Part shown: one piece after another, positions 3,237-49,322 of the stretch | How the letters are laid out: each line of letters starts with the position of its first letter | How positions within the stretch are numbered: the first letter of the stretch is position 1 | NCBI GenBank assembly: GCA_020137815.1 | Contig: CM035356.1 | Coordinates: 3,224,001 to 3,288,000, forward strand | DNA from: Hormiphora californensis | Taxonomy: Eukaryota; Animalia; Ctenophora | DNA: 64,000 bases | Reading direction: 5' to 3' | The notes under the pieces: generated by a model | What the model was told of the DNA's origin: nothing | What the model saw: only the letters and a program-made list of their open reading frames with translations | Databases searched by the model: none | Program-made: the position numbers and the translations under genes

Positions 3237-3328
3237 ATGACGACTCACCCGTTATTCCTAATATAGCCATCACCATGACGACTCACCCGTTATTCCTAAT
3301 ATAGCCATCACCATGACGACTCACCCTG
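3237..3328 (+). repeat. 38-bp tandem repeat covering acceptor-like AG plus start codon of the GPCR
   Basis: atgacgactcacccgttattcctaatatagccatcacc repeated; ATG at 3237, 3275 and 3313, only the last is open. Confidence 0.85.
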
Positions 3329-5418
3329 GAACCCTCCTTTGTGTCTCGTTCTGCTATGCTGCTGTGGCAATAGCTGCCACATTTGGAAATCTATACGGAA
3401 TCATCAAAATATCCGTACTGTGCAAGGTATGTAGTCACTCCGATGTAGTATCCGATCTGTTCACGTTCTTACTTCAAACCCCTCCTTGGCCTTCCTAGCT
3501 TCTTTGATCCCCCAACACACACTGTACGGTGAGAGGATACAGGGATCCTATGACATTGGAGCAGGGGGAAGAAGTACGACCTAAGTTACCAGCTCAGCTA
3601 ACTATGTGTTTCAGATGGCAAATGATAGGGACAAGACGAGTTTACGAAAGACCAACCTACATCTCCTTCTCCACATGTGTCTCAGTGACATGTTGACCGG
3701 GGCTCTGGCTGCCCCTTTTACTGTCATCACACTAGTCATTCAGGTAGAGACTCTATACTTATTATTCAGCTAGCACGTGTTTTAGGAAACTGTCAGGCAA
3801 TACTGACCCCTCTATTCTCCCCCTCTCCAGGCTTCAGGCAATGCTGACCCCTCTATTCTCCCCCTCCAGGCGTCAGGCATCACTGACCCCTCTATTCTCC
3901 CCCTCTCCAGGCTTCAGACATCACTGACCCCTCTATTCTCCCCCTCTCCAGGCTTCAGGCAACACTGACCCCTCTATTATCCCCCCTCCAGGCTTCAGGC
4001 AATACTGACCCCTCTATTCTCCCCCTCCAGGCTTCAGGCAACACTGACCCCTCTATTATCCCCCCTCCAGGCTTCAGGCAACACTGACCCCTCTATTCTC
4101 CCCCCTCCAGGCTTCAGGCAACACTGATCCGGACATCCCATGGCTTCACCGGTACATGTGTAATGTGTCCGGGTTCGTGCAGTGTACCACGTGCCGCATG
4201 TCCCTACTTGTAACCATGCTGCTAGTCACCATACGTGCATTAGCAATCTACTCTCCGAAAAAGGTAAAGTCAGGTTTTTGAAGTTGTCTCCCCAAACTCG
4301 TGCTTGCTTAATGCTTACAGCTCGATTACTCCGACCGTCAAAATTTGTCTTTAGATAAATATAGATCTCTGTTAACCTCCCTCCTCCCCTGCAGCTGTCA
4401 GTACGTGGCTTCTACACTGGCACGGTGTATCTTGTTTACAGTCTCTGGATCCTCTGTATAGGTAACAGTGTTGCTGGAGGGGTTACCATAATGTTAATAT
4501 GTTAACATGTTAACATATGTTGCTGTTAACACGATGTTCACCCCTCGGTCCTCCGGTAAACAATCCTTTCGTGTAGTTCTCATTTCTTTATGCTCCACTT
4601 GTTGAGTAAGGGCCGTCATCATGAACAACTCAACAGTACACTCCTTCCAACACTCTGCACTCCTGCAGGTATTGCTGTGATTCATTAACAACTCGACTCC
4701 TTCCATCTCAACTCCCCTCCTTCAGGTATTGCTGTGATTCCGTTCCTTGGTAGCACGGTGTACCACTATGAGAGGCCCCTTGAAATGGGATGGTGGGATA
4801 TCGACGAGATATTCGGAGAGAATGGATTCATCACAGGTACACATAATAGCTGTGCGAATCCCTGTTAGATCTGTCAGCTGCCAATATGCTATATCATGAG
4901 TCTTCCATAGTGTGTACCACTTCTCTGTTAGATTATTCATAGGCTCTGACATTACACTTGTTAGATGTCATAAATTTGTGGACATAGCTCTGATTAGGTT
5001 GTATGTGTTTGTGTCCAAGCAATTGTATGTTCCCCCTCCCTGAATTGTTTCTGAATAACTGAAGTCTGACGTCACATCCATTTTTATGAGAACTCAAGTT
5101 TTCACGTTCATCTAATCAATGTTATGAGCCCAAACTGAAAGTTCTCTCACTCTTTCTCCCTGTAAACCTCACTTTCTCTCTCTACCTCTCAGTTTCTCAT
5201 CTAGGAAATTGGCCCTCGCATATATATGGTGATTGGGATTTGTGGTTTTATAGCTCGGTCAGCTTTTGGAGTCAGGGGTCTCATATAATATGAGTTCTGA
5301 ACTGCTAATGAACCCAGCCCCTATAGATTCATTATGTTTCACTATCACTTGTGCAAAACGTTTTTTCTTATTCAATCTCATTGCCTTTCTCTCTCACTAT
5401 CTCTCTCTCTCTCTCTCT

Positions 5419-5474
<56 letters not shown>

Positions 5475-8400
5475 CCTCTCTCTCTCTCTCCCTCCCCAGG
5501 GTATCTACTGGTAGATACGATTCCCTTCTTTATCCCGGGTAGTGTAGTACTGATTGGAACTGCAGCGGTTCTCTCCGGCCTGAAACGTATCCAAAGGCAA
5601 TCTGATGTCCGGAGGAGATCACAGGTACTAATTAATTAATTAATTGCTTAATTAGAGCAGGTTCGATCCTGAGATTCTTCCTTCAAATTAACCATGTCCC
5701 ATCTCTAAGTATCCCCCTCATATTAATACTAATTCTAGGCCACAACATCTTTCCCCCTCATGTGCTAATTATCCTCCTCCCCTCTCTCCAGGTGACTGCA
5801 ATGGCATCTGGTGGTACTACAGCAGTGGTACCGCGGGCGCCCTCTGGGAAGAGGGTACATTGCCACTACCAGGCTGCCATTACCACCCTACTGGTAGCGG
5901 CCTTATTCCTGGTGTCATATGGGATGTGGTGGATAACGAGCGTCATCACCCTCCTCGCTGAGGTGAGGTTGAGAGAGGTGTTGAGAGATCTATTATAGAG
6001 CCTAAACAGATCCAAACCGCTAGCTCCTCCTAAATTCTACAGTCTAGGCGAGGTTTAAGGCTAGGTGATATCATTAATCTTATAGTGCTCAAATTAGATC
6101 TACCAGCCCAAAGTACACGACTTGGGTGCAGTTAGATTAATTTAATCCGGCTCATAAATTTGAGAGGAGGATTAAAACTAGAATACAAAGTTATACAAGC
6201 TGGAGTACCTATAGGCGTGATACAAAGACAAAGAATACAATACACACTAGAAGAGGGATACATAGCTGAGAAGAAGCCTTTGTTGCACTAGACGGGTTGC
6301 ATAATCGCATAATGCTATGCTGACGTCATTGTGAGAACTGAGAGGGAGGAGACTATAATTGTTAGTTGAAGGGCTTGAAAAGTGGAAACCTACTATATAA
6401 ATCCGATAATATCTTCTATCTATCTATCTACGGAGTGCCTGGGCTTGCCAACGGCAAGCCCACAGGGGACTATCGCAAAGCGATATCGCCGGCACTAGGA
6501 GAATAGCCCCCCTCCCCTCCCCCACCATCAGGAACTGCCCACAGGACAGGTTCCATTATAGGTGGCTTCGGGTTCGGGAGGGTAAACTCCTTCGAGAGTC
6601 GCAGGATATTGATTCTTCTTCCCTATGAGTCTTGGATCTTTGGCTCTCTATCCCTGCGACAGGTGGGGATGAGTTCTTCTAATCTTTCTCTTGGTTCTTG
6701 AGTTTATTTGCTTTCTCGATTAGCTTGATGGCTACCGCGGTATATATTATATGTGTAATGTGAGACCTATCTGTCTGATTAGGATCAATTAAGTCCGATT
6801 AGGTTAGAAGGCTGAACTAGCAAGGATTTGTTCTCAGTCAACAGTTTTGTTTAGTATGTATATATTGGTGGTGGGCGGGGCGGTTCGGGGCGGGTGGAGG
6901 GTATCGCGTAGTGGGGGAGAGAGAGAGAGAACGAATCTTGAACTATAGAAGGGGAGAGAGAGAGAGAGTTAATCTCATGCGAGTGAGAGAGAAATTTTGC
7001 GGGAAATTGAGAGATATAGAGATAAAATAGTTGCTGTTTTGTTCTCTTACTGTGAGAGAAGAAGAGAGGACTTAATAGAGGTTAAATGTAAAATATGGTT
7101 TAGTCGCTGGTATAATATCTTGATATATCAGTATTCAGTATCCTAACCTTAGAACATGTCTGCTAGGCTTTTATATTCTAACCCTTTCTCCACATCCCCT
7201 AATCTAGGTCTGCTAGGCTATATATTCTAACCCTCTCTCCACATCCCCTAATCTAGGCGGGCGTGATTGAGATGCCAGACTCATTCAAGCTGGTGAAAGG
7301 ACAACACAACATCACCATCATGCTATCCCACGGCTTCATGGTCTATCTAAACTGCGCTGCTAACCCCATTCTCTACCACTTCAGGTTAGTGTCTCTAGAT
7401 TATACTCTATGTTATATTTACGGGGTGGGGTGGGTGGGAGGCTACATACCACTGATAACTGTTCTGGGCCAAACTGGTAGTACCATTTTGGCTCAGAACA
7501 GTTATTTGCCTAGCTGGTAATATCGATCAAGGATCAAATCTAGAGTTAAACAATCCACGGAGAAGGAAAGTGGAACGACAGGGGTTAGCTGTAGGCAGTT
7601 AGTAGGCAGCATGACAATCTCGGTAAAATGATAGTACAATATGGTAGTGATAAGCCGGCAGTGAAGTCATGTTCGGCAATGAGCTGTCGACACACATTCC
7701 AAGCGAGATAAGCTGATAATCAGAACAGAAAAGTGAAATCATCGCAAAGTGCATGTGAGATTATATGTGCTAGCAATTGAAAAGTATGAAGCAGACAAAT
7801 TGAAAAGAAGTAGAAGTGATAGTTCTGCTGGCAGGCCAATTTGAAAGAAATGAGAGTAGGGTCAGGCCAATGCTCTGACAGTACAGTTCCGATATAATAT
7901 GTATTCCATTTTGTTGACGTAGCACAATTCACTTCGCGTGTGTTTACTTAGTTAGGTCAACAATATCTGAGGTTCCAATTACACCGTAATCAGTTCAGAC
8001 TTTCAGAGACTAAACGGGGGAGTGGGGTGGTTACCGGTATATTAGTTGTGAAACCGGTTATGACCAAGATCATAATCTCTATAATAGGACCGGGTTTTCA
8101 ATTTTGGTTCCCCAAGGATGGATTCGATCGTGGAGCGCACAGTGATAGTATAGGTATATCCAAACAATGTCGCGATATTGTGACCTTTACGTGCAGAGAG
8201 GATAGTCTTTTGAGAGCGGGAAAAAGTGAAAGTGCTCAGAGAGTCAACTCTAAGTTACTCTACTAGAACCTACAACAAGCTTGTACAATTCTGTTTCGGT
8301 CCACTCTCAATCAATTTTAATTTTTAATTTTAATTAGAGATACGTGGTACACAGCATTCCAGTTTCAAGCGACACAATGTCAAGAGCACTCCCCCCTCCC

Positions 8401-11400
8401 CCTCCCCCCTAACCCCTCCCCCTCCCTTACTAGGTTGTTCAATGTGAGACGACCGGACAGGACCAGGAAGGTGTCTTTCTCAACTCTAGACACAAAGATG
8501 GGCAAGATGTCCGGGTACTTTAAGAAACACAACAATACCGTATCTACAGCCTCCAAGAACAACAATCTACCTGAGGTATGTTTCACACGGCCTCGGCAGA
8601 TCAATGTTTCATCTCCCCATGTATTAAAACTTATTCAAGTGATGCCTGTTGTTATGCATTATTTGGACCTAGGAATACTTGTTATCATGACTGAGTATAA
8701 CAGCTGTGTAATTTGCATCTGCTGATAGCATTGGGATTTGATTAGTAACAGATTGCATTGTGTGTTATGTACAGTTTCAAACTTTTCAACACTACTTTAA
8801 ACAAATTAATTTGAGGATCCGTTTTGCTGCCCCTCGTTAATCCTTCTGAGACTTCTGTTTATCCCTCTCCTTAAAGAAAAGACAAGAGAAGACGTGTCTG
8901 GTTTTTCTAAGTAAACAGATCTCAGAGGACCTCGTTGGGTTATAACCAAGGACGCCAAGACTTGCAAGGAACGGTTCCTCGCGCCTCTATTTACAGGACA
9001 GGATGTCGGGTGTGGCTACCCATGATGTTATAATGTGCAGGAACGATATGGAGGGTAAGTTGCTCGCCACGAGCTACTCTGATAGATGTAAGGGTGCCAG
9101 TATTTTGCAGAGCATTAAGGATGATGCAGTGGAGCCTCCAAGTGGAGCTTCCAAGGCGGTTTTATGGACGATGGTCAAGGAACTATATGGATTGTTACCA
9201 GAAACACGACGCATCTCTACCCACTCATCTGAATCTGTGACATCATTCACAGCTGAAGACTTGAAGGATACACTGGATAAGCTGAAAGAGGATCTTCTGA
9301 GCACACTACCGGATCTGGTTGCCCCCAAGGTTAGTAAGATCTTAGCTCCTGGCAGTGACCAATTGGCTATTCACGCTGTGAATCGCATTGGCTCAGCACA
9401 GGAAACTGTGACACCTGTGACTCCAATTAAGAGGTATCTGACTATCAAGGATAAAGGTGAGGAAGGACCTATGTGTGAGAAGAAGTGGACTACTGTCGTG
9501 AAGACAAAGGTGGAGAAAGCATTGAATAAGATTCCAGTCCTAGATCTTTCAGTCACCAAGAGGAGGACAAATCTTATGTTTGAGACCGATGAACAGTTGG
9601 AACAGGCGAAAGAAGTTCTTTCACCGTTCCTTGATGTTTCTCCTGTAGTAGAGAAGGAGAAGAAGAGAGATCCTCGCATCATGATCAATGATCTTGACCA
9701 AGACCTGCTGGAAAAAGATCGCCTTCTGTCAGAGATTGTCAGTGATAAGAATGAGTCTGTGAAGAGACTAGTTGAGGAGGGTCACCTGGTGAAGGTGGTC
9801 CATGTAAACAGAACAGGAAGATATGCAGTGTTCCAGGTCTCTCCAGAAGTGAGGAAGGCGATATCAGAAAGGAAGGACAAGCTATTCTTGAAACTTCGAC
9901 AGCATTCAGTGAGGAACAGGTTTTATGTCACGCAGTGTTTCCACTGTCAGCGCTTTGGCCATGTAGCAGGATCCATCTACTGCCCAAACAAGGATAAATC
10001 TCCGGTTTGTGCCTTCTGTACGGGAGATCATGACACGAGGAGTTGCCATGCCAAGAAGGAAAATGTAGTGAGCAGGATGAAATGTGTCAACTGTGATCAT
10101 GGAGGAAGCAGAGAGGACAAGCGCCATGCTCAAAGTCACCCAGCCTCCAGCAGTATGTGTCCATTCTATGTAAATGCTAAAGGAAGACTCATGGAGAGTA
10201 CCAGTGGAGTAACAAAGCAGGAAAAAAACGTGTACCTGACGAGGGCATGGGAGGATCTGAGAGGAAAACGTCTTGGAGGATTGGCACACTAAACGTCCAT
10301 TCTATTATGAATAAAACGTCAGGTGTAATTACACACTTGGAGGAAAAAGGATGCGACTATCTGCTTGGTACAGGAGACTTATCTGAAACAGAGTGACACA
10401 GCTAAACTTCAGGAGATCAGAGACTATGGTTGGAATATCTTCTCCTCGCCTAGAGCGGAACGTTCAGGAGGTGGAATTGGAATCTTGTACAGGGATGGTG
10501 TCAAGTTGAAATACACTCCGGTAAAAGCCAAGTTTAAATCGTTTCAAGTCCAGGAAGCCCTTATTGGAGGAGGAAAAGATGTAACGAGGCTGTGCAATAT
10601 CTATAGACCTCCGTATACTGGCAAGGCACGGTTTACGGAAGCCCAGTTCTTGGATGAGTTTACTGATTATTTGTCAGAGTTGGTCTGCAAAACGGGGAAC
10701 CCTATCCTGATGGGGGACTTTAACTTCCAGGTTCAAGATACTCAGAACTTCTATGCGAAGAAGTTGCTTGGACTACTTGACTCTCTTGGATTTGATCAGC
10801 GGGTCCCACTACAACCTACTCATGTTCGTGGTGGTACTTTAGATCTGCTTCTCTGCCAAAAAGACAGATATTCTAAGGTTCAATCAGTTGAAGTATTTCC
10901 TGACGGAACGACCTCTGATCATTTTCTTGTATTGGCGGAGCTGTGTATAGAAACTGTTGCAAGTGAATACAAGACTCGTGAAAAAGTGGACATGTACAGA
11001 GATTTCAAGGCTGTTGATATTGAAATACTTCGATATGCTTTTAGGAGCGTGGATTGGAGTGAAGCGATGGAATCTGGATCAGCTGAGGAGGTCTTGTTTA
11101 TTTATATGAGGAAACTTGAGGAACTTGTGGATAGGACTGTCCCGTTGAAGAGGAGAAAGAAGAGAGGAGCTACGCTGAGGCCATGGAGAGATAATCCAGA
11201 GGTGCGTCAAGTTCTTCGTCAGCGGCGGAATGCTGAGCGAGCCTGGGAGAACAATAAAACCAGCGTCACGAAGAAGCATTTCAATGAACTCAAGAGGCAG
11301 TTTGGGCGTGTTGACAAGGAAGCGAGGACGAAATACGTCAAGGAAGACTTGGAGGAGTCCAGAGATGACCCTAAAGCCCTTCAAAGGAAACTGAACCGTC

Positions 11401-14400
11401 TACTTGGTAATACTGAGACCTTTATGCCTGAAACCACAGATAAGCAGAGGTTAGCGGATGACTTTGCGGACTTCTTTGTTGGAAAAGTTGATAAGATCCG
11501 GTCTACTGTTATTGGAGAGAAGAATCTGAGGACTAAGAGGAACCCTATTCATCAGACACCCGTCTGTTGTTTTGAGGAATTTGAGGAAGTTTCCCCAGAG
11601 AAACTAAAGAGGATAATCAAAGACATGCCAGACAAGACATGTGATCTTGACCCTATACCGACTTGGTTAGTGAAGGGGTGTATGCATGAGCTAGCTCCAG
11701 TCTTGTGCAGGTTTATTAACCTATCTCTTGGATGTTCCAGTGTTCCTGAACTTCTCCAGCAAGCTTTGGTGTTTCCCACGATTAAGAACCCTTATGGCGA
11801 TAAGGACACTTTGACCAATTATCGGCCAGTCTCCAACCTATCTTTTGTCTCCAAACTTCTTGAAAAGATAGTTCTAGAGCAGCTCAACTCGTATCTCAAT
11901 GAGAACGAGTTACTAAATAAGCATCAATCAGGTTACAGGGTGAATCATAGCTGTGAAACCCTACTGATGGGTATGTTTGATGATCTCCTTCGGGATATGG
12001 ATGAAGGAAAGGTCGCAGGCCTCTTTCTATTAGATATGAGCGCCGCTTTTGACACAGTGGACCATGGAAAGCTGCTAGAAGTTCTTGAAGGACGGTTTGG
12101 AGTGAGGGGTTCTGTCTTGGATTGGTTCGCCAACTATCTACAAATGAGGACTTATCGGGTAAACGTGGAAGGGGAACTTTCGAGGATTGTCTCTCTGATT
12201 TGTGGAGTTCCGCAGGGTTCACTGCTTGGACCTGTGTTGTTTTTACTGTATGTGGAGGAATTGCAAGATTTGGTCAAACCTTATGGCTTGAGGATTAAAC
12301 TTTATGCTGATGACTCGCAATTGTACATCAGCTTTGTACCAACTGATGAGGAAAACTGGAAACTGGCAAAGGAGAGGACTGAGGAATGCTTGTCAAGTGT
12401 GAAAGAGTGGATGAGTGAGCACTGGCTAAAGTGCAATGAGGCAAAGACTGAATTCCTGCTGTTAGGCAAAAACAGTGCCCTGGATAAGATGGTGTATCAG
12501 CCCACTGTGGACTTTGGTGGAGTGGAGATAAGCCCAGTGGACTTTACGGGTAATGCAGGAAAAACACTAGGAGTGTTCCTTGATAGCAACCTCTCAATGG
12601 AGAGACAAATCAACAGTGTTAAGAAACAATGTGGTTTGCTTTTGAAGAATCTATGGCAAGTAAACCGATGTCTGGATAAATCGACCAAGATACTCCTTGT
12701 TAAGCAGCTCATCATTTCAAGATTGGATTATTGTAATGTCCTTTACCATGGCTTACCTAAGAAGCTTCTCAACAGCCTTCAGAGAGTCTTGAACTCGTGT
12801 GTCAGATTTGTTTATGGCCTATACGGTCACCAAGACACCTACATGCCATACTTGAAAGAGTTGCATGTTCTTCCTGTGGAACAACGAGTCACGTTCAAAG
12901 CATGCCTCATGGCGTACAAGATTGTACATGGATTGGCCCCTGACTACCTGCAAGATCAGGTCCCTGTTGATGATGGACTTCATGTGATCCGGGCTACTAG
13001 AGGAAATGCTTGGCCTGATGGCCTCAAGCTGAAGTACCCTAAGCTATCAAGTGTCAATGCGACTTCCAAGTTGAGAAGAAGACGTCCGTCGGTTTACCTG
13101 CCTGAAGTCTGGAATGGGCTTCCCCTTGATCTGAGAGCTGTTGAGTCTGTGGAATCTTTCAAGTCTAAGCTCAAGACTAGTCTTTTCACTGAGGCTTTTG
13201 GTGAGACTGGACTGTCCTCTTAACACTCTCCTTCTTGCTGAGGTATGTGCTCTGGCTGGTACCCGTTTTTAATTGTTTTTCTGTATTATAGCTCGTGGCG
13301 AGCAGAAGTGTGAAGCATAAATTGGGGTTTTTCATAGCACGAGTGTTTTTCTGTGTTTCCAATCTACGGACTTTTATATCAATTTTTAGAGTTCCAGGAC
13401 TCTAACTCAGTCTGTTATGTATTCAGTCACCGATAGTTATGTGAGCCGATAGTAATGTGAGCCGGTGTATTTTTTCTTTATTATTTTTTTTTTTGTTCTA
13501 TTAGGGATAAGTTTGCGAGGTCTTACCAGTATATTAACCGTTCAGATCATCCTTCAGTGACAGTAGCAGTTCTGCTGCTCTGTCCCTGTCGGATATGGGC
13601 GGAATATAAACATAGTTATTATTATTATTATTATTACATGTGCACTAGCAAACTGAGAATTGGGGCGGGGGCGCTAAAATGCTGAAAAACAAAACTGAAT
13701 GAAAAATTGAATGAAACGATTACCCTGCACCTCATGCATAAGCGCGCTATGCTCCGATATTTCGCTACAGCTGAAGCAAGCTGTTCCTTTTTTCTTACCA
13801 CAGCAGGATTTCATGTTGATTCAATTGCTCTCTACGTGTTGATGATCTGCATCTCTCCTCTTGCTATTATGTTGTATTGTTGAGTAAGGGGTTACTCAAC
13901 AAGTTTATATGTTGTCAGACTCAGCATCTGAATGTGTAATTGTTTGCTTTTTGTATCTGCTGAAGCTGTGTGTTTGCCTGCAGCAGCTGTATAATTTCCT
14001 CACGACCCCCATTGCCCAGCATACCTCCCTGTGTGTGTAGGATAGTGGCAGTGGCACGACAAGACGGACATCCCATCACATCGCCCCTCCTTCTGATTTC
14101 AACTCCGATCATCAGGACGCACCAGCAGTTCGTTCTTTTTGGGAGAGAGTGGTGGATTGGTTGTGGGGAGGAAGAATGCGGGACAGCAGCACTGTGCTAA
14201 ACAATCCCCAAAAAGAGACTATTTCCTCCCTTGGCGTAGTTGTGGAATCATGATGACAAAGAACATAAACATTTGAATGTTATAAAAACGATAATTCGGT
14301 AGAAAACAATATTTCGCTGACCCGCTATCTCAGATTTAATTGTTATGCACAGAGATTTCATTTCTCGGCGTGGAGCATGCCAATATTGTAACAACTTAAA

Positions 14401-14925: not shown

Positions 14926-35513
<20,588 letters not shown>

Positions 35514-36064: not shown

Positions 36065-36782
36065 ATTCATGAGTATCGTATAGGTAGCTCTAGGCTCTCA
36101 AGACTGCTGCTAGGTTCGAGACAGCACGACAAAGCGCACGATTCTGCAACAAGTGTCAAACCTATCAATCGGTGATATATATCCAACAAAAAGGCGTCTG
36201 GTAATTGCAGTAAGATCACCTTTGAACCTTGTAGGATAAGAGAAATGCTTTATAGACAACGCTATAAGTGAGAAATTGGCTGAAATTCATGAGTATCGTG
36301 AGAAATTGGCTGAAATTCATGAGTATCGTATAGGTAGCTCTAGGCTCTCAAGACTGCTGCTAGGTTCGAGACAGCACGACAAAGCGCACGATTCTGCAAC
36401 AAGTGTCAAACCTATCAATCGGTGATATATATCCAACAAAAAGGCGTCTGGTAATTGCAGTAAGATCACCTTTGAACCTTGTAGGATAAGAGAAATGCTT
36501 TATAGACAACGCTATAAGTGAGAAATTGGCTGAAATTCATGAGTATCGTGAGAAATTGGCTGAAATTCATGAGTATCGTATAGGTAGCTCTAGGCTCTCA
36601 AGACTGCTGCTAGGTTCGAGACAGCACGACAAAGCGCACGATTCTGCAACAAGTGTCAAACCTATCAATCGGTGATATATATCCAACAAAAAGGCGTCTG
36701 GTAATTGCAGTAAGATCACCTTTGAACCTTGTAGGATAAGAGAAATGCTTTATAGACAACGCTATAAGTGAGAAATTGGCTG
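36065..36782. repeat. 250-bp unit tandem repeat (~2.9 identical copies)
   Basis: Units start at 36065, 36315 and 36565; each junction contains a doubled 30-mer gtgagaaattggctgaaattcatgagtatc. Confidence 0.95.
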
Positions 36783-38252: not shown

Positions 38253-39975
38253 ATGTTGAAGTTTGTCAGTGTTGCGGTCCTCGTGGTGATGATGTCGTCC
38301 CTTGTCAGCGCTGATCAGGAGGGCTGTTCCTACTACGACCCAGTCCTGGGAGGTGTCTACGGTCTCTGTGATATGAAGGCCTACTGCAGCTACGGGTGCC
38401 ATGTAAGTTCTGTAGGACACTCATAGAAGAATTATATGTTCGGTAACCAATTCTGGTTACACAATCTGATCTCGGATAAGTTTTTAAAACAAGTTTAGAC
38501 TATTAAAAAAGTTTGCTGAGCATTGAGCACGCTACTATATCAGTATTATAGGGCCTAATACTTATAAATGTCAACTTATCCTTCACACAGCGAAACCAAT
38601 GCTGGAAGCAGTGCGGAAACGCCGAGGATATCTGTGTTCGAGAAACCCGAGCCTTCGCCCTTGCCGTTAACAAGGATGGTACGTAACTAAAGTATCTATT
38701 AGTTAACTAATAAGTTGCTAACTAATAACTATTAATAACTACAATAGCTCCACAGAAAACCCTGTCCAGTGTCCAGGCTCTGACTGTAAAATTATTAGAA
38801 ATTAGAAACTATAATATCCCCTTCAGGAACTCTTTTAACCTGTGACTATCACTTCAAGAACTCTTTTAACCTGTGACTATCACTTCAAGAACTCTTTTAA
38901 CCTGTGACTATCACTCCAGGAACTCTTTTAACCTGTGACTATCACTTCAGGAACTCTTTTAACTGTGACTATCACTTCAAGAACTCTTTTAACCTGTGAC
39001 TATCACTTCAGGAACTCTTTTAACCTGTGACTATCACTTCAAGAACTCTTTTAACCTGTGACTATCACTTCAGGAACTCTTTTAACCTGTGACTATCACT
39101 TCAAGAACTCTTTTAACCTGTGACTATCACTTCAGGAACTCTTTTAACCTGTGACTATCACGACGATTGCAAGAACGAGATCGACTTCACCAAAGCAGGA
39201 TCCAGGTAATAATAATATTAATAATCTCTATTATAATTTGGAGATGAACGACGTCGAAGTGGTGGTCGTTCGTTAGGCGGTATCTAAGCGACAGACTGCT
39301 CCTTCATAAAATACTTCATGTACCCAAAGCTGTAAAGCTGTTGCTCACACTTTTGGAACTTCCAGTGGAAGTTTGAAAATGTTTTTGAATGAGTTTTAAC
39401 ATGCCAGTCCCTATAGTTAACAATTCAGTTGCCATGACAACCGTGTTGACGTTGAAAGGGCGAAAAGAACCACCCGGCGAAGCCGGGTGGGTTATCAAAA
39501 GGCCTTACTTGAGGCGCACCCAATGGGTGCGCTAGTCTATATTATAATTTGGAGATGAACGTCGTGATGGCCGTTCGTTCAGCGGTATCTAAGCGACAGA
39601 CTGCTCCTTCATAAAACACGTCATGTACCCAAAGCTGTAAAGCTGTTATATTCACACTTTCTGAAGTTTCAGTGGAAGTTTCTTAATATTTCGAATGACT
39701 TTTAACAGGCCAGTCCCCATAGTTACCAATTCAGTTGCCATGGCAACCGTGTTATTGACGTTGAAAGGGCGAAAAGAACCACCCGGCGAAGCCGGGTGGG
39801 TAATCAAAAAGCCCTTACTTGAGGCGCACCCAATGGGTGCGCTAGTTAACTAAATAAAGATTTTGGCCACACGACCAACTCGACATGTACTCTACGCAAA
39901 GTATTCTAAACTCCCTTCAATTTCTAAACTCACTAAACCATTTCCAGGTGCATCTACTCCGACCCCAAGTGGTAG
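38253..39975 (+). CDS. Secreted cysteine-rich peptide, 111 aa, 10 Cys; exons 38253-38402, 38591-38678, 39136-39205, 39948-39975
   Basis: MLKFVSVAVLVVMMSSLVSA-DQEGCSYYDPVLGGVYGLCDMKAYCSYGCHRNQCWKQCGNAEDICVRETRAFALAVNKDGTLLTCDYHDDCKNEIDFTKAGSRCIYSDPKW*; intron phases 0, 1, 2 are all consistent. Confidence 0.85.
38821..39161 (+). repeat. 31-bp tandem array of acceptor plus exon start (11 copies, 6 CAG / 5 CAA)
   Basis: Unit cttcarGAACTCTTTTAACCTGTGACTATCA; the last copy runs into exon 3. Confidence 0.95.
39224..39845 (+). mobile_element. Head-to-tail dimer of a ~311-bp non-autonomous Helitron
   Basis: Each unit starts TC(T)..tattataatttggagatgaacg and ends with hairpin gcgcacccaatgggtgcgc overlapping CTAG; the dimer is inserted between A and T. 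Confidence 0.85.
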
Positions 39976-41161
39976 AGAGACCTCAACAAGAAAGCCCAAA
40001 TAAACATATATAACGGACACTGCTGCACTTCACCCTTATCATAATACATATCTAGCTGGTTATAATATCTCTCTAAACAGACACTATAATATCTCTCTCC
40101 CCTCTGCCTGTTGAACTATGTCGGACATACTACCACCACCTCTTTATTGATCCTTTTCGCTGCTTCTTATATAGTGTTTCTCTCTCTCACATAAACACTT
40201 ATATTACATCTCTCTCTCTTATTATTTTACTAGGTACCATCAACATCATGTATAACATATATGAGAGATATTTTAATTCTCATGATATAACATGTTCGGA
40301 GAGTAATCTTGAGTGGGCTGTTAGCTTTTAAATCCAAAACAGAATTGTTATGTTTAAATTTTGAATTTCTTGATGCCAATACATAATGCTCTCTTGAATT
40401 TGTACCATAAAGGATGACTACAAAATATACCATGCACAGGACAAGTACATCAAAGCAACGGAAAGCCTATCGTTTCCCTTTTCAAACCCAATTTATCAAA
40501 CACACAAACTGTTCCATGGTTGTTCATTATATGTCCCAGTTACTATGGTAACTGACCAGGGTTCAGTTGTCCGATAAACAATGATATAATGGTACTCCTT
40601 CATGTTGTTTTTCATATGGATCATACTGCCAACTTACCTTTTTCGAATAAAAAGGGTTTGAACAAAACAACTGCGGCCAACTCATAGTTCCAGAAAATAA
40701 TTTCGATTGATCAGAGAATTAAATGTGAAAACATTGGGATACTGCCTGACATCAAAAACAGTGTGGCGTGTAAGTTTTAATTTGAAGTCATGAAAAACTT
40801 AATCTTTTGGATAATAACGATAATATTTTAATTATCATGCCTAGCGTTTATATGCGTTCCGTGAAATGAGAATAGGACAGGACCGAAACCGTTTTATCAC
40901 TGCACTATAACAAGCAGCCTTGCTATATCACATATTATAAGCAAAGCCAATTTATCTTTTCAGTGTCTTTAAAAATTTAAATAAAAACGTTCTTCATGAT
41001 CAGCGACTCTCATCATTGCTGCATCAGTCTCGGCTGGTGTTTTTCAAAAACATATTGTCATTTCTGTCACACTTGTTGATTGACACTTGTTAAGTGACAC
41101 TGGGTCAGTGGGTCAGTGGATCATCTACTGTCAGAACAGTGTCATGTATGGATCTGCTGAA

Positions 41162-43462: not shown

Positions 43463-46400
43463 CTCTCTCTCTCTCCGCCTTTTTTTCTGACTTCGACATT
43501 GAGCTCTTCGTTTAGCTTTTCAAAATATATCTTCATCTACAATCCAAAGCAGCAGCAGGCAAAACTAAAGGTGTAAGTGCCATGGTCTAGCTTTCTGGCC
43601 AACTAAGTTCCATTACAGTGCTGCTTGTAGTGGCATTACCGTAATAATATTACAGTAATAAGACACAGACTTTGCATAACGTGTGGAAAAAAAGTTCATG
43701 TGTCAGCACGTACTAGCGCACTGATTGGCCACGGTTGTGCGTCGTCATACCGTATCTCCATTTTCCATTACCGTTTTCCCACTACAAGCGACCGGGTTAA
43801 TTTTTCTGGCTCAATAATATGCTCTTTTAGTGGCATGAGATGTTTATCTTTGGAGTTCTTACCGGGCTTATTGGATTGGCAAGTCTTTTGGAGACCTCCT
43901 TCGATAAAACATCGGTCTCTACAGATGAGTGTAAATTAGTGGAGGTTGGTGGATATCTCCACGAACAGTGTTTCCTAAACGAGACTACAACATACTACAA
44001 ATGTCCTCTATCAAATATTGTGTACAATGTGTCTCACGAGATTAGTTATAAGGAAACTAATTGTAGAGGTGTTGAATTCAGCACTCATTGTCCTTCTGAT
44101 CCAGGGTTCTACCAGGCATGCGGGCATGAAGGTTGCTCAGAGTATAGAGAACTAACGGGTGACAACTAAAAATTGTCCCTAATTTAAAACGGCTGTATAA
44201 ATTTTTCCTTTTGAGATACAGCTTCGGGCCAGTTATAGAACGATTTTTCAGACAATTTTGAATCGGAATAACATACTGCCAAAGTCTTAAAAGTTCATTT
44301 TCATTGCAATGACCATCAGGTTGTCGCATGTGCTCAACAAAGCATGTAGGAGGAGAATGCAAAATTCCTATTTTAACAGAACGACCATCCATGAAAGAAT
44401 GTCAAATTATGTTGTTGTTGCCAGAATAATCTACTGCAGTTCAAATTAGCTCATTGAAGTTGGTTTGCCAAGTCTAAGTGATTTAAGTTTCGAATGGCCG
44501 GTTAAGGTAATAAACTAGGCAATTGTTACAAATCCTGAAAAGAATTGGGGTAGGTATGTCAATTACGAGGCAGCGTTAAAAAGTTTAAAATTTTTACCGA
44601 AAAAAGGAAAATTGGTTTACAACCAGTGTTGGCTTTCCTTGATAAATTTTTAACAGGGTACGTATCTGGTTGATACCGATCAGAATGGATGTGTATCATG
44701 AAAGTTAGCCAAAGTTCATTTTTGACCTGAAAATGTTCATTTTGGACCAAAAATGTTCATTTTGGACTAAAAATGTTCATTTTGGTCTTTTTCTTCAATT
44801 TTGAGAGCTTTTTCATGAACGGGATCGTGTTCAGCAGGTCAAAATTAGTCGGTTACAACCGGAATTTGCATTCCGACAAATAAAATCTCAAAAAGTTAAA
44901 ATTCGTCTCCACTAATACTGCAAAGTAGGAAAATGTGCAAGAAAAAAAGATGAAAACAAGAATTATTGCATTATGTATTCATAATGCTGTGTTTCCCTGC
45001 CCTACCGTTTCACATGTCAGTGACATTGTCACTGCCAACAGGATCAAGGCTTGGTCATAATGTAATGTGAGATGCATATGATCTAGCTGTCAGTATACTT
45101 CTCACATAGCTTAGAGTTAGCTAACTCCCAATCACATGACACTTGCTAACCAGCTTTTGACATTCCAACTTAACTACTTATATAACATCTCACACTCGAC
45201 TCGCAAGATGAAAATGTGAATGTAACACGCGAAACGCGCGGCAGAGCATTTCATGTTTTGTTGAGTGGTGCGCGCACACACGTCCATCAAACTGTGTCAA
45301 TGAGGTGTTTGATGAAGGAGTAGCTCGTCACTGTGTGCGCGGCTCTAGTTGCTACACCGTTGCCCTCGCAACGAAAGTGTGACCAAAAAATGTCCCTCTA
45401 CCGATTAGATAGTATACCAAAATGTCGTTTTCGAATTCTAACCCTGCTATGCCTTTTTACAAAGTAAAAAGGCATCCGGGTGAATGCCTTCGGCATTCAC
45501 CCGGGCAGGGAAAAAATAAATTTTTCATTATAAAATAGAGTTCTGAAGGTACAGACTGGAAATAATGGTTGTACTGAGTCTCATGAGGCGATTCATATGT
45601 GTGGTTTTTTCGAAATAACGCCCCAAAAAACATTTTTTGATATGAATATGCCCATATATGGGCATACATCGGCCCACGTAATTGGGCCAGAGTAGGACTA
45701 AAATTTTTTTACCAAATGTTTTAAAATGATCGTAGGAACTCATTCTAGGGGTAAACTATGTGAAAATTGGATTTGATTTATGAGTTGGGAAAAATAGCAG
45801 ATTCTGCAATAGAAATGTGGAATGTACCAGTGCCGAAGATGAGATTGGATATTCTTATTTGACCGTTGATGATCATACCACCTGTAAGATGTACGGATCC
45901 GGGGAGATCGTAAAAATTCAAGATAATATGAGGTGTTTTGATCCGACACATTCCGACTGTTTGAGCAGACAAGATCAGACCAACTGCAGTGATCCTGAAA
46001 AGGTTGTTATGCAGTGTCCCTCCCAGGGCTTCCCAACAACCATATCGTTCTGGGGTTATTGTGTGGGTCGTAAACTTTGTGATGATGATTACAATAACGT
46101 TTGTGTTGATCCAGAAATAGGCTGTACCATTCACAAGGGGCAGTTGTGTGATGACCATCGTGACTGCAATAATGGAAGAGACGAAACTTGTAAAGATCTC
46201 ACAAATGTGACTTGCATCAGAAGATTTCACTCTCCAAACGTGGAGAAGAACATCTCCCTACCATTTCCATTGGAGTGGGTCATGGATGGGGAAGTGGACT
46301 GTCTGGATGGAATGGATGAAGATAAGGGTAATTGGAAGATATGCGGATCTGACTATTACACCAGGTATCAAGAGATAGGGACTGAATGCGATGAAGTTCT

Positions 46401-49322
46401 TCTCTGTCCTTTAGAGCGAAACTATATTGACTTAAACAGTCTTTGCGATAGAATAAACACGTGCTCGTTTGAGGAAAAACTGTGTATCGCAGCTCGGCAA
46501 ACTGACGCTGATGTTACAAGCCTCGTCGATACTTTCATCAAAGGTCCCAATGAACAGTTCATTCAGCACTGTTTTCCATTCGGAGCTTCTGACCTGGAGA
46601 GGAAGTTGGGAAAGTGCTACACAGTCGGACACACTGCTGGGCACGTCAAAACGGTTCTTGATGTTCAACAACCTGTGTTCGTAAAGATTCCTGAAACCAA
46701 GGTCGATTGCTCCCATCTTTTTGGTGAAAACTATGTCTATGCTGCTTGCAACGATGTTTGTTTGAATGCTGAATGTCCGCTAAGGGAAATTCCGGGAGAC
46801 ACATGTCTAAATAAAAAGGATTCTGTAGTAGCCCTGGCAGCGACTGAGTTTCCAAGTAAAACTACACTGATCAAAACGGCACAAGTCCCCGGATTCTACG
46901 ACAACGAAATATTCCCGTGTGATAATGATAATTGTGTCTCCTATCGGGATGTCTGCAATCTTAAGGACGACTGTGGTGATGGCTCCGACGAGAAGAACTG
47001 CTCTAATCACTTTGAGTGCAACAACAGTAACATATTGGAACTCATACCGCTATCTTATGTTTGTGATGGCGTGGTACATTGCCGTTATTTCTCAGACGAG
47101 TGCTTTGAAGGTTGCCGCTCTACAAGCCAAAATATCTTCGAGAGCGAATTTCTCCGATATGCAAGCCCATCTATGGGACTTTTATCAACATCCTTGAACA
47201 CTATTTCATTAATTAAATCGGTTTGGGAGTTACGACAACAAGAAACGTATGAAATGTTCCTCAATAAGCTGGCCATCACAATGATAAACCTTGGTGACTT
47301 GATGATTGGTGTATACCTGCTGCTCATCTCTTACTTTGACCATGCCTACAGAGCTGATGGCAACTATTGCCAAGAGAGATATCAATGGTTTAGCTCCAGC
47401 GAGTGTTCCTTCCTTGGAGTTCTGAGCACAACTGGATCACAACTATCACTCTTCGCAATGACAATGCTAAGCCTAACCAGAGTAGCAAACATCGGCAACC
47501 TCATCCAACGGGACTTATTCAGCTACAAGTCTGCTGCCAAGCTTGTGTTTCTCCTAGTTTGTCCTACTTTAGCAAGTTTCGTGATTGCAGTCACACCCAT
47601 CTTGTCATTGACTGAGGACTACTTTGTGAACGGCTTGTACTATCATGAATCACCGCTCTTCATCAGGCCCGTAACTAAGATTAACCACTATAAAGTTTTC
47701 AAGGAGTACTTTGGAGGGCGGTCAGTGTCGTGGGAGAAAGCATCGTTTTCCTGGGAAGTGATCCGTTCAACAGTCAAAGACATGTTTTCGTCAAATTATG
47801 GAGGTAATTACTGTTTTTAATTGTGTATCAATATATATGTTTACATGCTTGATTTTACAATAAATATAATGTTCTAAATCATTTTCAGGTATTCGAAGTT
47901 CGACTGTCCATTTTTATGGCAATGATGGTGTGTGCATTTTCAAGTATCTGGTTACCCGAGATGACCCCCAATGGGTGTTTTCAACAACCATCCTAATGAT
48001 TAATTTCTTGTGTTTCATCTTGATTTTGCTGAGCTATGTATACATCAACTTGAAAACGCAGCAATCCAGCCGGAATGTGGGAGCTGCTGCAGGTGGTCGA
48101 AGCAATAACAAAGCACTGCAAGCAAAAATATCAGCAATTATCCTAACAGACTTTTTTTGCTGGATTCCATTGAGCATTGTTGCATTTCTTCATCTCTCAG
48201 AAGCTGTAAATGCGTCAACTTGGTATCCCTTCTTTTCGATTCTTATCCTTCCCATCAACTCGGTTATCAATCCCTTGTTGTATGACTCCAATTTCTACTT
48301 TGGTCTTCTAAGTATTCCAACACAAGCTATACGTCGGAGTACACGAAGACTAATACTGTTCATACAGAATTCTATCGGCAATCATCAAATGCCTATGGAA
48401 ACAAATCCCCTTGCCCAAGAAACGGCGCTTTGAAAATGCGACCAGTGATTAAATGACGGACAATTGGGACAATGAAAAACCGTTTAGAGACTATCATTTA
48501 TTATCAAGAATATGTATGTGTTAGTTATACTGTGTTGGTATCAACTTAATTTGAGATCAACAATGACAATGAGCAAAGTATCTTGTGTGAATATTATGTT
48601 ACCCTCTGTAATTACTGAATTAAGCTGTTTTATCTGTATTTCTATTTTCTAGGCATGACTGCTTTGAGTCATTACCGTACGACGTACGACAAATATACAG
48701 AAATTTAAATGCAACCTACAGATCTCGTTGATAATGAAATTATAATTAACCCTTATCCGCGCTATAATAGCTCACGGAGCATATAGTCACGGGGTGACTT
48801 CGTAAGCAACAGATCTCAAGTCTTGGTAACCTAGATACACTTTGGTTACGAAGTTACTCCTCCCTTGCCAGCTCGTGAAGGTCACGGGGCGACCTTTAGA
48901 GGGGTTATTACTTATTTCATAGCCAAAGATAAACATACCTCCATGGTTGGTTACCATGGTGACCAACTCTTTCGTAACCTACCTCCATGGCGGCCTTCAG
49001 CTCGTAGGCAGCGTAGTAGTTGAAGTCTCGTGCCACGAGGAGGAGAGATGTGAAGCAGTCTTTGACATGGTGACCTGTCATCTCAGCTAACACCGTAACC
49101 AGTTCATCTGCTGTCTCCTATATGGTAAAATGGAAATTAGGGCCGGAGTCTCAACAGGGAATAGAAGGGATCAGTCTCAATTAATAGATCCTACAATTGT
49201 ATACACTATTATGCCAAAAACTAACAGAAATTAGTTGGCTGAAAAGGTGACCACTTTTGTTGACAAATTGACACCTTTGCCCTCTCCGGGTTTCATCATT
49301 ATCTTTCCCTCTCTAATTTCTA

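Follow-up and report, generated by a model that had tools for sequence, protein, structure and literature searches.

A young, polymorphic splice-acceptor minisatellite in a ctenophore intron, probably removed whole through its last acceptor

In a small gene of the ctenophore Hormiphora californensis, a 31-nt repeat carries the intron 2/exon 3 junction in eleven tandem copies. We consider it likely that this array is a near-neutral minisatellite of the type called a "mirage" in amphioxus, present on some haplotypes and removed whole by splicing to its last acceptor. It lies in a window (the whole stretch of DNA analyzed) of 64,000 nt, contig CM035356.1, positions 3,224,001 to 3,288,000 of the forward strand. 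Judged by its sequence and by matching DNA and RNA contigs, the array at 38821-39161 is a real, young, polymorphic mirage minisatellite: its unit spans an exon-intron boundary, intronic copies keep splice signals and copy number varies between haplotypes.

The host gene, as read from open frames, has four coding exons encoding 111 amino acids with a hydrophobic start and several cysteines. The gene and its array comprise the following features.

38253 to 38402, plus strand: coding part of exon 1, cysteine-rich, with the ATG and a signal-peptide-like hydrophobic start; open frame, RNA contigs of runs X9, X10 and X18 stopping at 38402 and restarting at 38591
38591 to 38678, plus strand: exon 2, with a phase-1 donor whose GT is at 38679; RNA contigs and frame
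38679 to 39135, plus strand: intron 2, 457 nt long; without the 309 nt contributed by the array, 148 nt
38821 to 38851, plus strand: copy 1, the native end of intron 2, with CAG at 38824-38826, joined to nucleotides 1-25 of exon 3; top-scoring acceptor, leading to TGA at 38874
38852 to 39129, plus strand: copies 2-10, decoys, four with CAG (AG ends at 38919, 38950, 39011 and 39073) and five with CAA and a weak AAG
39112 to 39116, plus strand: candidate branch site for copy 11, TTAAC with its A at about -20, exon-derived and found in every unit; proposed from motif position
39130 to 39135, plus strand: copy-11 acceptor, the sole productive one; frames and RNA contigs
39136 to 39205, plus strand: exon 3, 70 nt; RNA contigs and frame
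39206 to 39947, plus strand: intron 3, 742 nt, holding a two-copy transposon-like insert
39948 to 39976, plus strand: coding part of exon 4 up to the stop; AATAAA at 39999, transcript ending at about 40120-40230

Pfam held no family for any of three exon peptides, and the exon-1 peptide gave no match against longer proteins. There was one Atlas match at 0.78, a weak score, and three phmmer matches were discarded as repeat-rich and spurious. The protein may resemble small secreted cysteine-rich proteins such as the Tha p 2-like proteins.

As had been claimed from the letters of the window, the array comprises 11 units built mostly of exon sequence. TRF called a period of 31, 11.0 copies, 96% matches and a score of 633 over 38821-39161, and each unit joins the last 6 nt of intron 2 to the first 25 nt of exon 3. 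Ten of the eleven copies sit inside intron 2, five with CAG and five with AAG only. The last intron base of copies 1-11 reads G,A,A,G,G,A,G,A,G,A,G, and this unit-by-unit reading agrees with the alternation of CAG and CAA reported earlier for copies 5-11. Copy 4 has one extra substitution and copy 5, at 30 nt, is one base short; three mutations (the G>A change, the copy-4 substitution and the copy-5 base loss) therefore suffice for all variation among units. The CAA copies had been described as dead. They have indeed lost CAG, but they are not free of AG, since the first G of the exon leaves an AAG one base on (38858, 38889, 38981, 39043 and 39105).

To rank the sites we used an acceptor matrix built from the 35 other acceptors of the 64-kb window, whose median score was 8.5. 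Copy 1 scored 10.3 and the CAG copies 4, 5, 7, 9 and 11 scored 6.5-7.2 (copy 11, 6.5), while the AAG sites scored -0.6 to -0.2, within the bottom 2% of real acceptors. Copy 1 had been identified as the ancestral site with the genuine pyrimidine tract; it is the native intron end and has the highest score, but its tract is no richer in pyrimidines than that of copy 11 (fraction 0.65 upstream of both). The upstream context of copy 11 is, as first proposed, exon-derived with a plausible branch site, the A of TTAAC at -20 falling within the -20 to -28 cluster of branch-like motifs in other introns of the window. Because this motif is present in each unit, every unit can supply its own candidate branch site. 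RNA structure prediction did not single out copy 11, the mean unpaired fraction being 0.48-0.56 across copies 2-11.

Reading frames do set copy 11 apart. All ten upstream AG sites lead to a stop inside the array, and only the AG at 39135 opens the 111-amino-acid frame. The sequence-only reading had expected every upstream CAG to run into TGA in the next unit; all upstream sites do stop within the array, but copies 4 and 5 reach their TGA two units on. The decoy-derived stops fall 82-336 nt ahead of the last exon junction.

DNA contigs came from X2, X5, X12 and X15, four of the 13 runs taken to be DNA; the runs that match the stretch derive from two coded organisms and from marine plankton samples. 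In X2, an array-linked contig of depth 41 extends through intron 2 into copy 1 and contigs of the unit have depths of 125-145, so that unit depth is 3.1-3.6 times that of the flank, where the window allele would predict 3.6-4.5. This excess over the flank points to a real multi-copy array. X2 may be the source sample of the window and would then lend the array no independent support. In X5, from another sample and another study, both CAG and CAA junctions occur at 5.2-5.3 times the flank, against 3.0-3.8 predicted, with uneven depths. Array copy number therefore differs between haplotypes, X5 lying above and X2 below the window prediction, with allele lengths approximate.

An assembly artefact would be an extremely improbable source of the array. 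Two exon-2 positions of the X2 array-linked contig disagree with the window and copy number was read without a spanning read, as an artefact might predict; against it, two DNA samples each yield contigs of both unit types, 3-5 times as deep as the flank. Those two differences may also mean that the window is a mosaic of haplotypes.

A second X2 contig, of depth 38, has 132 non-array letters before 39130 and does not contain the intron-3 insert. We take it to be an array-free haplotype, a paralog being less likely. Organism B, a related species, has no array: in its X12 contigs and in an X15 contig of 1109 nt, about 190 nt of different sequence separate 38699 from a single acceptor. The absence of the array from one X2 haplotype and from organism B implies that it is young and segregating, and the length of intron 2 before the array arose was about 150-220 nt.

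Intron 3 (39206-39947) also varies. It is missing from the DNA of organism B, where exon 3 joins exon 4 directly in X12 and X15, and a 7-nt direct repeat is common to its two ends; on this sequence comparison it is a recent precise gain or loss, of unpolarized direction. Within it, 39222-39846 holds two tandem copies, 87.5% alike, of an element of about 310 nt that has very high depth in X12 and is absent from the second X2 haplotype. The ends of this element look Helitron-like.

For expression we used three of the six runs on record as RNA, environmental contigs from other, untyped animals. X9, X10 and X18, from three studies, yielded one contig each, running from exon 1 through exon 2 and 39135-39200 to exon 4; all three join exon 2 to 39135/39136 and contain a single copy of the exon-3 start, which confirms the gene model and the exon boundary. 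Together with the sole 111-amino-acid frame, these contigs, present in all three RNA runs, support the earlier proposal that copy 11 is the only working acceptor. The contrary outcome that it had envisaged, dominant use of the copy-1 acceptor, was absent from all three runs, whose animals are untyped. Depth was zero in bins 38726-39085 in the three runs examined, in data where contigs lose rare forms and decay would hide them. Because array-free alleles exist and the animals are untyped, the three transcripts are not provably products of an array allele. Flanking variation gives a hint: the X9 transcript has T at 38632, as have the contigs linked to the array in X2 and X5 DNA, whereas X10 and X18 carry 38632 C, so the X9 transcript may derive from an array-type haplotype. 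We infer that array-bearing alleles probably splice cleanly.

If the clean transcripts came instead from array-free alleles, the array allele could be leaky or partly null, a mildly harmful segregating variant. We judge this unlikely. The array-free haplotype in X2 and the 38632 C of X10 and X18, which differs from the array-linked contigs of X2 and X5, would accord with it, and since copy 1 is a stronger site than copy 11 (10.3 versus 6.5) leaky use of copy 1 would be plausible. Nevertheless, the array occurs in two samples and in the window with differing flanking variants, the X9 transcript has the array-linked T at 38632, and many other genes of the window bear intact decoys.

A regulatory role is very improbable. 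Regulated use of upstream acceptors could send part of the transcripts to decay, with array copy number setting protein dose; each decoy does lead to premature termination, 82-336 nt ahead of the final junction, and human splice-site VNTRs can alter splicing (PMC5954066). Such a tuner is hard to reconcile with the lack of the array in the related species and in one haplotype, and with zero decoy-containing RNA contigs in all three runs.

The alternation of CAG and CAA had been read as possible selection to silence decoys. On such a view CAA would have been favored, chiefly in the unit adjoining the real acceptor. We find this quite unlikely. In its favor, none of the window's 35 other acceptors uses AAG and such sites rank in the bottom 2%; the G>A change weakens the unit nearest the real site (AAG, -0.6), as selection would favor; with the alternation, the nearest CAG lies at a distance of 62 nt rather than 31 nt; and CAA units occur in both array-bearing samples. 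However, a single mutation accounts for all five CAA copies, and by chance three changes in a 31-mer would strike the AG at least once with a probability of 0.18. Moreover, five of the ten decoys remain CAG, including the strongest site, copy 1.

Decoys elsewhere in the window also argue against silencing. We probed 12 junction duplications with probe lengths chosen by hand, and 11 gave decoys; one row scored as broken is a truncated array end. GT or AG was intact in 41 of 49 decoys in these 11 arrays and in 36 of 39 outside the host-gene array; in each of the 10 other arrays, the decoy adjoining the real site was intact. Distinct changes fell in the GT/AG dinucleotide in 4 of 47 cases against 3.26 expected, a low-power count from 11 arrays in one window. 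The excess of AG-destroying changes for which a genome-wide search had been suggested is therefore not seen at window scale. One G>A change followed by expansion of a 62-nt dimer is enough to produce the alternation, and no selection is required.

We favor a near-neutral mirage with the following origin. A 31-nt duplication over the intron 2/exon 3 junction, by slippage or unequal exchange, would have seeded the array; one G>A change in one unit would then have been followed by amplification of a 62-nt CAG+CAA dimer, and the higher-order dimer proposed by the sequence-only reading is thereby supported. Choice of acceptor would be made from the exon side, by the remainder of exon 3 and its donor at a distance of 70 nt, that is, by exon definition. 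Copies 9 and 11 have identical sequence from 111 nt before the AG to 26 nt after it; copy 11 is set apart only by exon 3 from +27 to +70 together with the donor (39206). If the array allele splices normally, this sameness on the intron side, together with similar pairing, calls for an exon-side cue. Simple scanning from a single branch point to the first AG would not on its own explain use of the last acceptor. Skipping of exon 3 would shift the reading frame. Transcripts that stop well before the last exon junction are likely degraded by nonsense-mediated decay; mis-spliced products with early stops would probably be removed in this way, which would lower the cost of intact decoys.

The host-gene array has counterparts in the window. 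From open frames we modeled 36 introns manually, 20,955 nt in all, with RNA support for the three of the host gene; the models were made after the repeats were known, and exon 28567-28469 was found through a control match. The window contains 30 duplication clusters, 15 of which touch modeled introns, and 9 of these 15 span a junction, corresponding to 9 of 72 splice sites. The 15 clusters that do not touch modeled introns were left out, among them 3237-3326 and 30341-30598, which resemble junction arrays but have no confirmed partner exon. Against a naive null, 9 of 15 junction events compare with 1.39 expected (about 6-fold), an event-level comparison that we set aside because it overstates the enrichment relative to a retest within each event's own intron. 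With that fairer null, array length removed and the host-gene array dropped, 8 of 14 events span a junction against 3.36 expected (2.4-fold, P 0.0014). Counting interior events twice gave P 0.012. Capping introns at 300 nt gave P 0.033, at 200 nt P 0.12, and at 100 nt there was no excess. Since an ancestral intron length of 200 nt or less would remove the excess, the junction-array enrichment in the window is only suggestive. A position-level control with array zones excluded (P about 1e-5) was circular and was replaced by the event counts.

One tentative and rather doubtful explanation is that tandem duplications here arise preferentially at splice junctions, where exon-side choice leaves them unpunished, for instance if recombination between highly divergent alleles halts at the limits of exon homology. 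If true, mirages would be a leading cause of intron growth in the lineage sister to other animals, and arrays that are polymorphic, like that at 38821-39161, would be ready tests of exon definition.

The individual arrays differ in side and size. In a coiled-coil gene on the minus strand, an exon end with its donor recurs about 17-18 times at 28914-29490 in units of 32-34 nt, and GT is intact in nearly all of them. A GPCR-like gene has eight copies of a 40-nt acceptor unit at 3792-4127, all seven decoys keeping CAG and a full pyrimidine tract, and two further acceptor duplications at 4660-4740 and 7172-7257. At 30341-30598 (minus strand) an acceptor array of 40-nt units ends at exon 30355-30269, whose upstream exon is unconfirmed. 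Donor-side duplications lie at 1567-1708, 17696-17772, 28379-28474, 61028-61228 and 3237-3326, in genes for asparagine synthetase and an ankyrin-repeat protein and in two unnamed genes; that at 3237-3326 is a putative 5' UTR donor.

Other features of the window include a receptor gene at 45784-48433, whose best matches are EukProt "sb/" models at 72-81% identity (top seven) and whose named matches are mostly from Mnemiopsis leidyi at 33-38%, which makes a ctenophore host very likely. We take the "sb" identifiers to be Pleurobrachia gene models. An apparently intact non-LTR retrotransposon occupies 8946-13223, with a 448-amino-acid ORF followed by a 964-amino-acid endonuclease and reverse transcriptase ORF. 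At 36065-36782, a 250-nt unit is repeated 2.9 times at 100% identity, either a very recent duplication or an assembly artefact. Between exons of the coiled-coil gene, 30925-31425 (minus strand) is a 166-amino-acid open frame with no Pfam match, which may be a gene nested there or an exon still to be placed. Two stretches near exon 59389-59477, at 59250-59330 and 59715-59790, were judged tRNA-like by eye.

One ctenophore genome is reported to have about 3.2% heterozygosity and many non-coding indels (PMC8527503), and in the passages of that paper listed "tandem" refers to repeat annotation only. Our search of the open-licence PMC and bioRxiv literature listed no mirage described from a ctenophore; this record, and a density in the window of about one intron in four, may be new. 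The single locus is a clean but ordinary mirage whose value is that of a natural experiment: the identity of copies 9 and 11, with array and array-free alleles in one animal, could show whether a short-intron ctenophore chooses its acceptors from the exon side.

Three known systems offer comparison. In the Rogers model of intron gain by tandem genomic duplication, a duplication bearing splice signals is spliced out (PMC4974935). Here too such a duplication is removed by splicing, but intron 2 was only lengthened and none was created; we rejected intron gain for this locus, intron 2 being present free of the array in organism B (X12 and X15) and in the second X2 haplotype. The 37-bp VNTR in intron 7 of human F7 is a donor-side array whose silent copies are functional yet unused (PMC1557585). 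As in our array, identical splice sites stand in tandem, the exon-adjacent one is used and the silent copies have not been mutated away. The F7 array differs in consisting of donors, their use being explained by 5'-to-3' scanning, whereas here the last of several acceptors is used; the function of the F7 pseudo-sites was tested, whereas the ctenophore decoys are known from sequence.

Closest are the amphioxus mirages, tandem repeats over exon-intron boundaries that are described for Adh3 (units of 10-72 bp), the globins BflGb6 and BflGb9, troponin C and PGBD5, with copy-number differences between haplotypes, splice signals partly kept and normal splicing (PMC3087553, PMC3902484). Somatic length instability is also reported for the Adh3 mirage. 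Like these, the array at 38821-39161 repeats an intron 3' end and the next exon start in tandem, with a 31-nt unit inside the 10-72 bp range; its copy number varies between haplotypes, and some copies keep and some lose the splice signal. The normal mRNA form made in amphioxus was seen here in all three RNA runs, from untyped animals that may carry array-free alleles. Unlike those described in amphioxus, it has a ctenophore host, one wholly array-free haplotype and a CAG/CAA dimer, and because only 6 nt of intron were copied its working acceptor stands behind exon-derived sequence.
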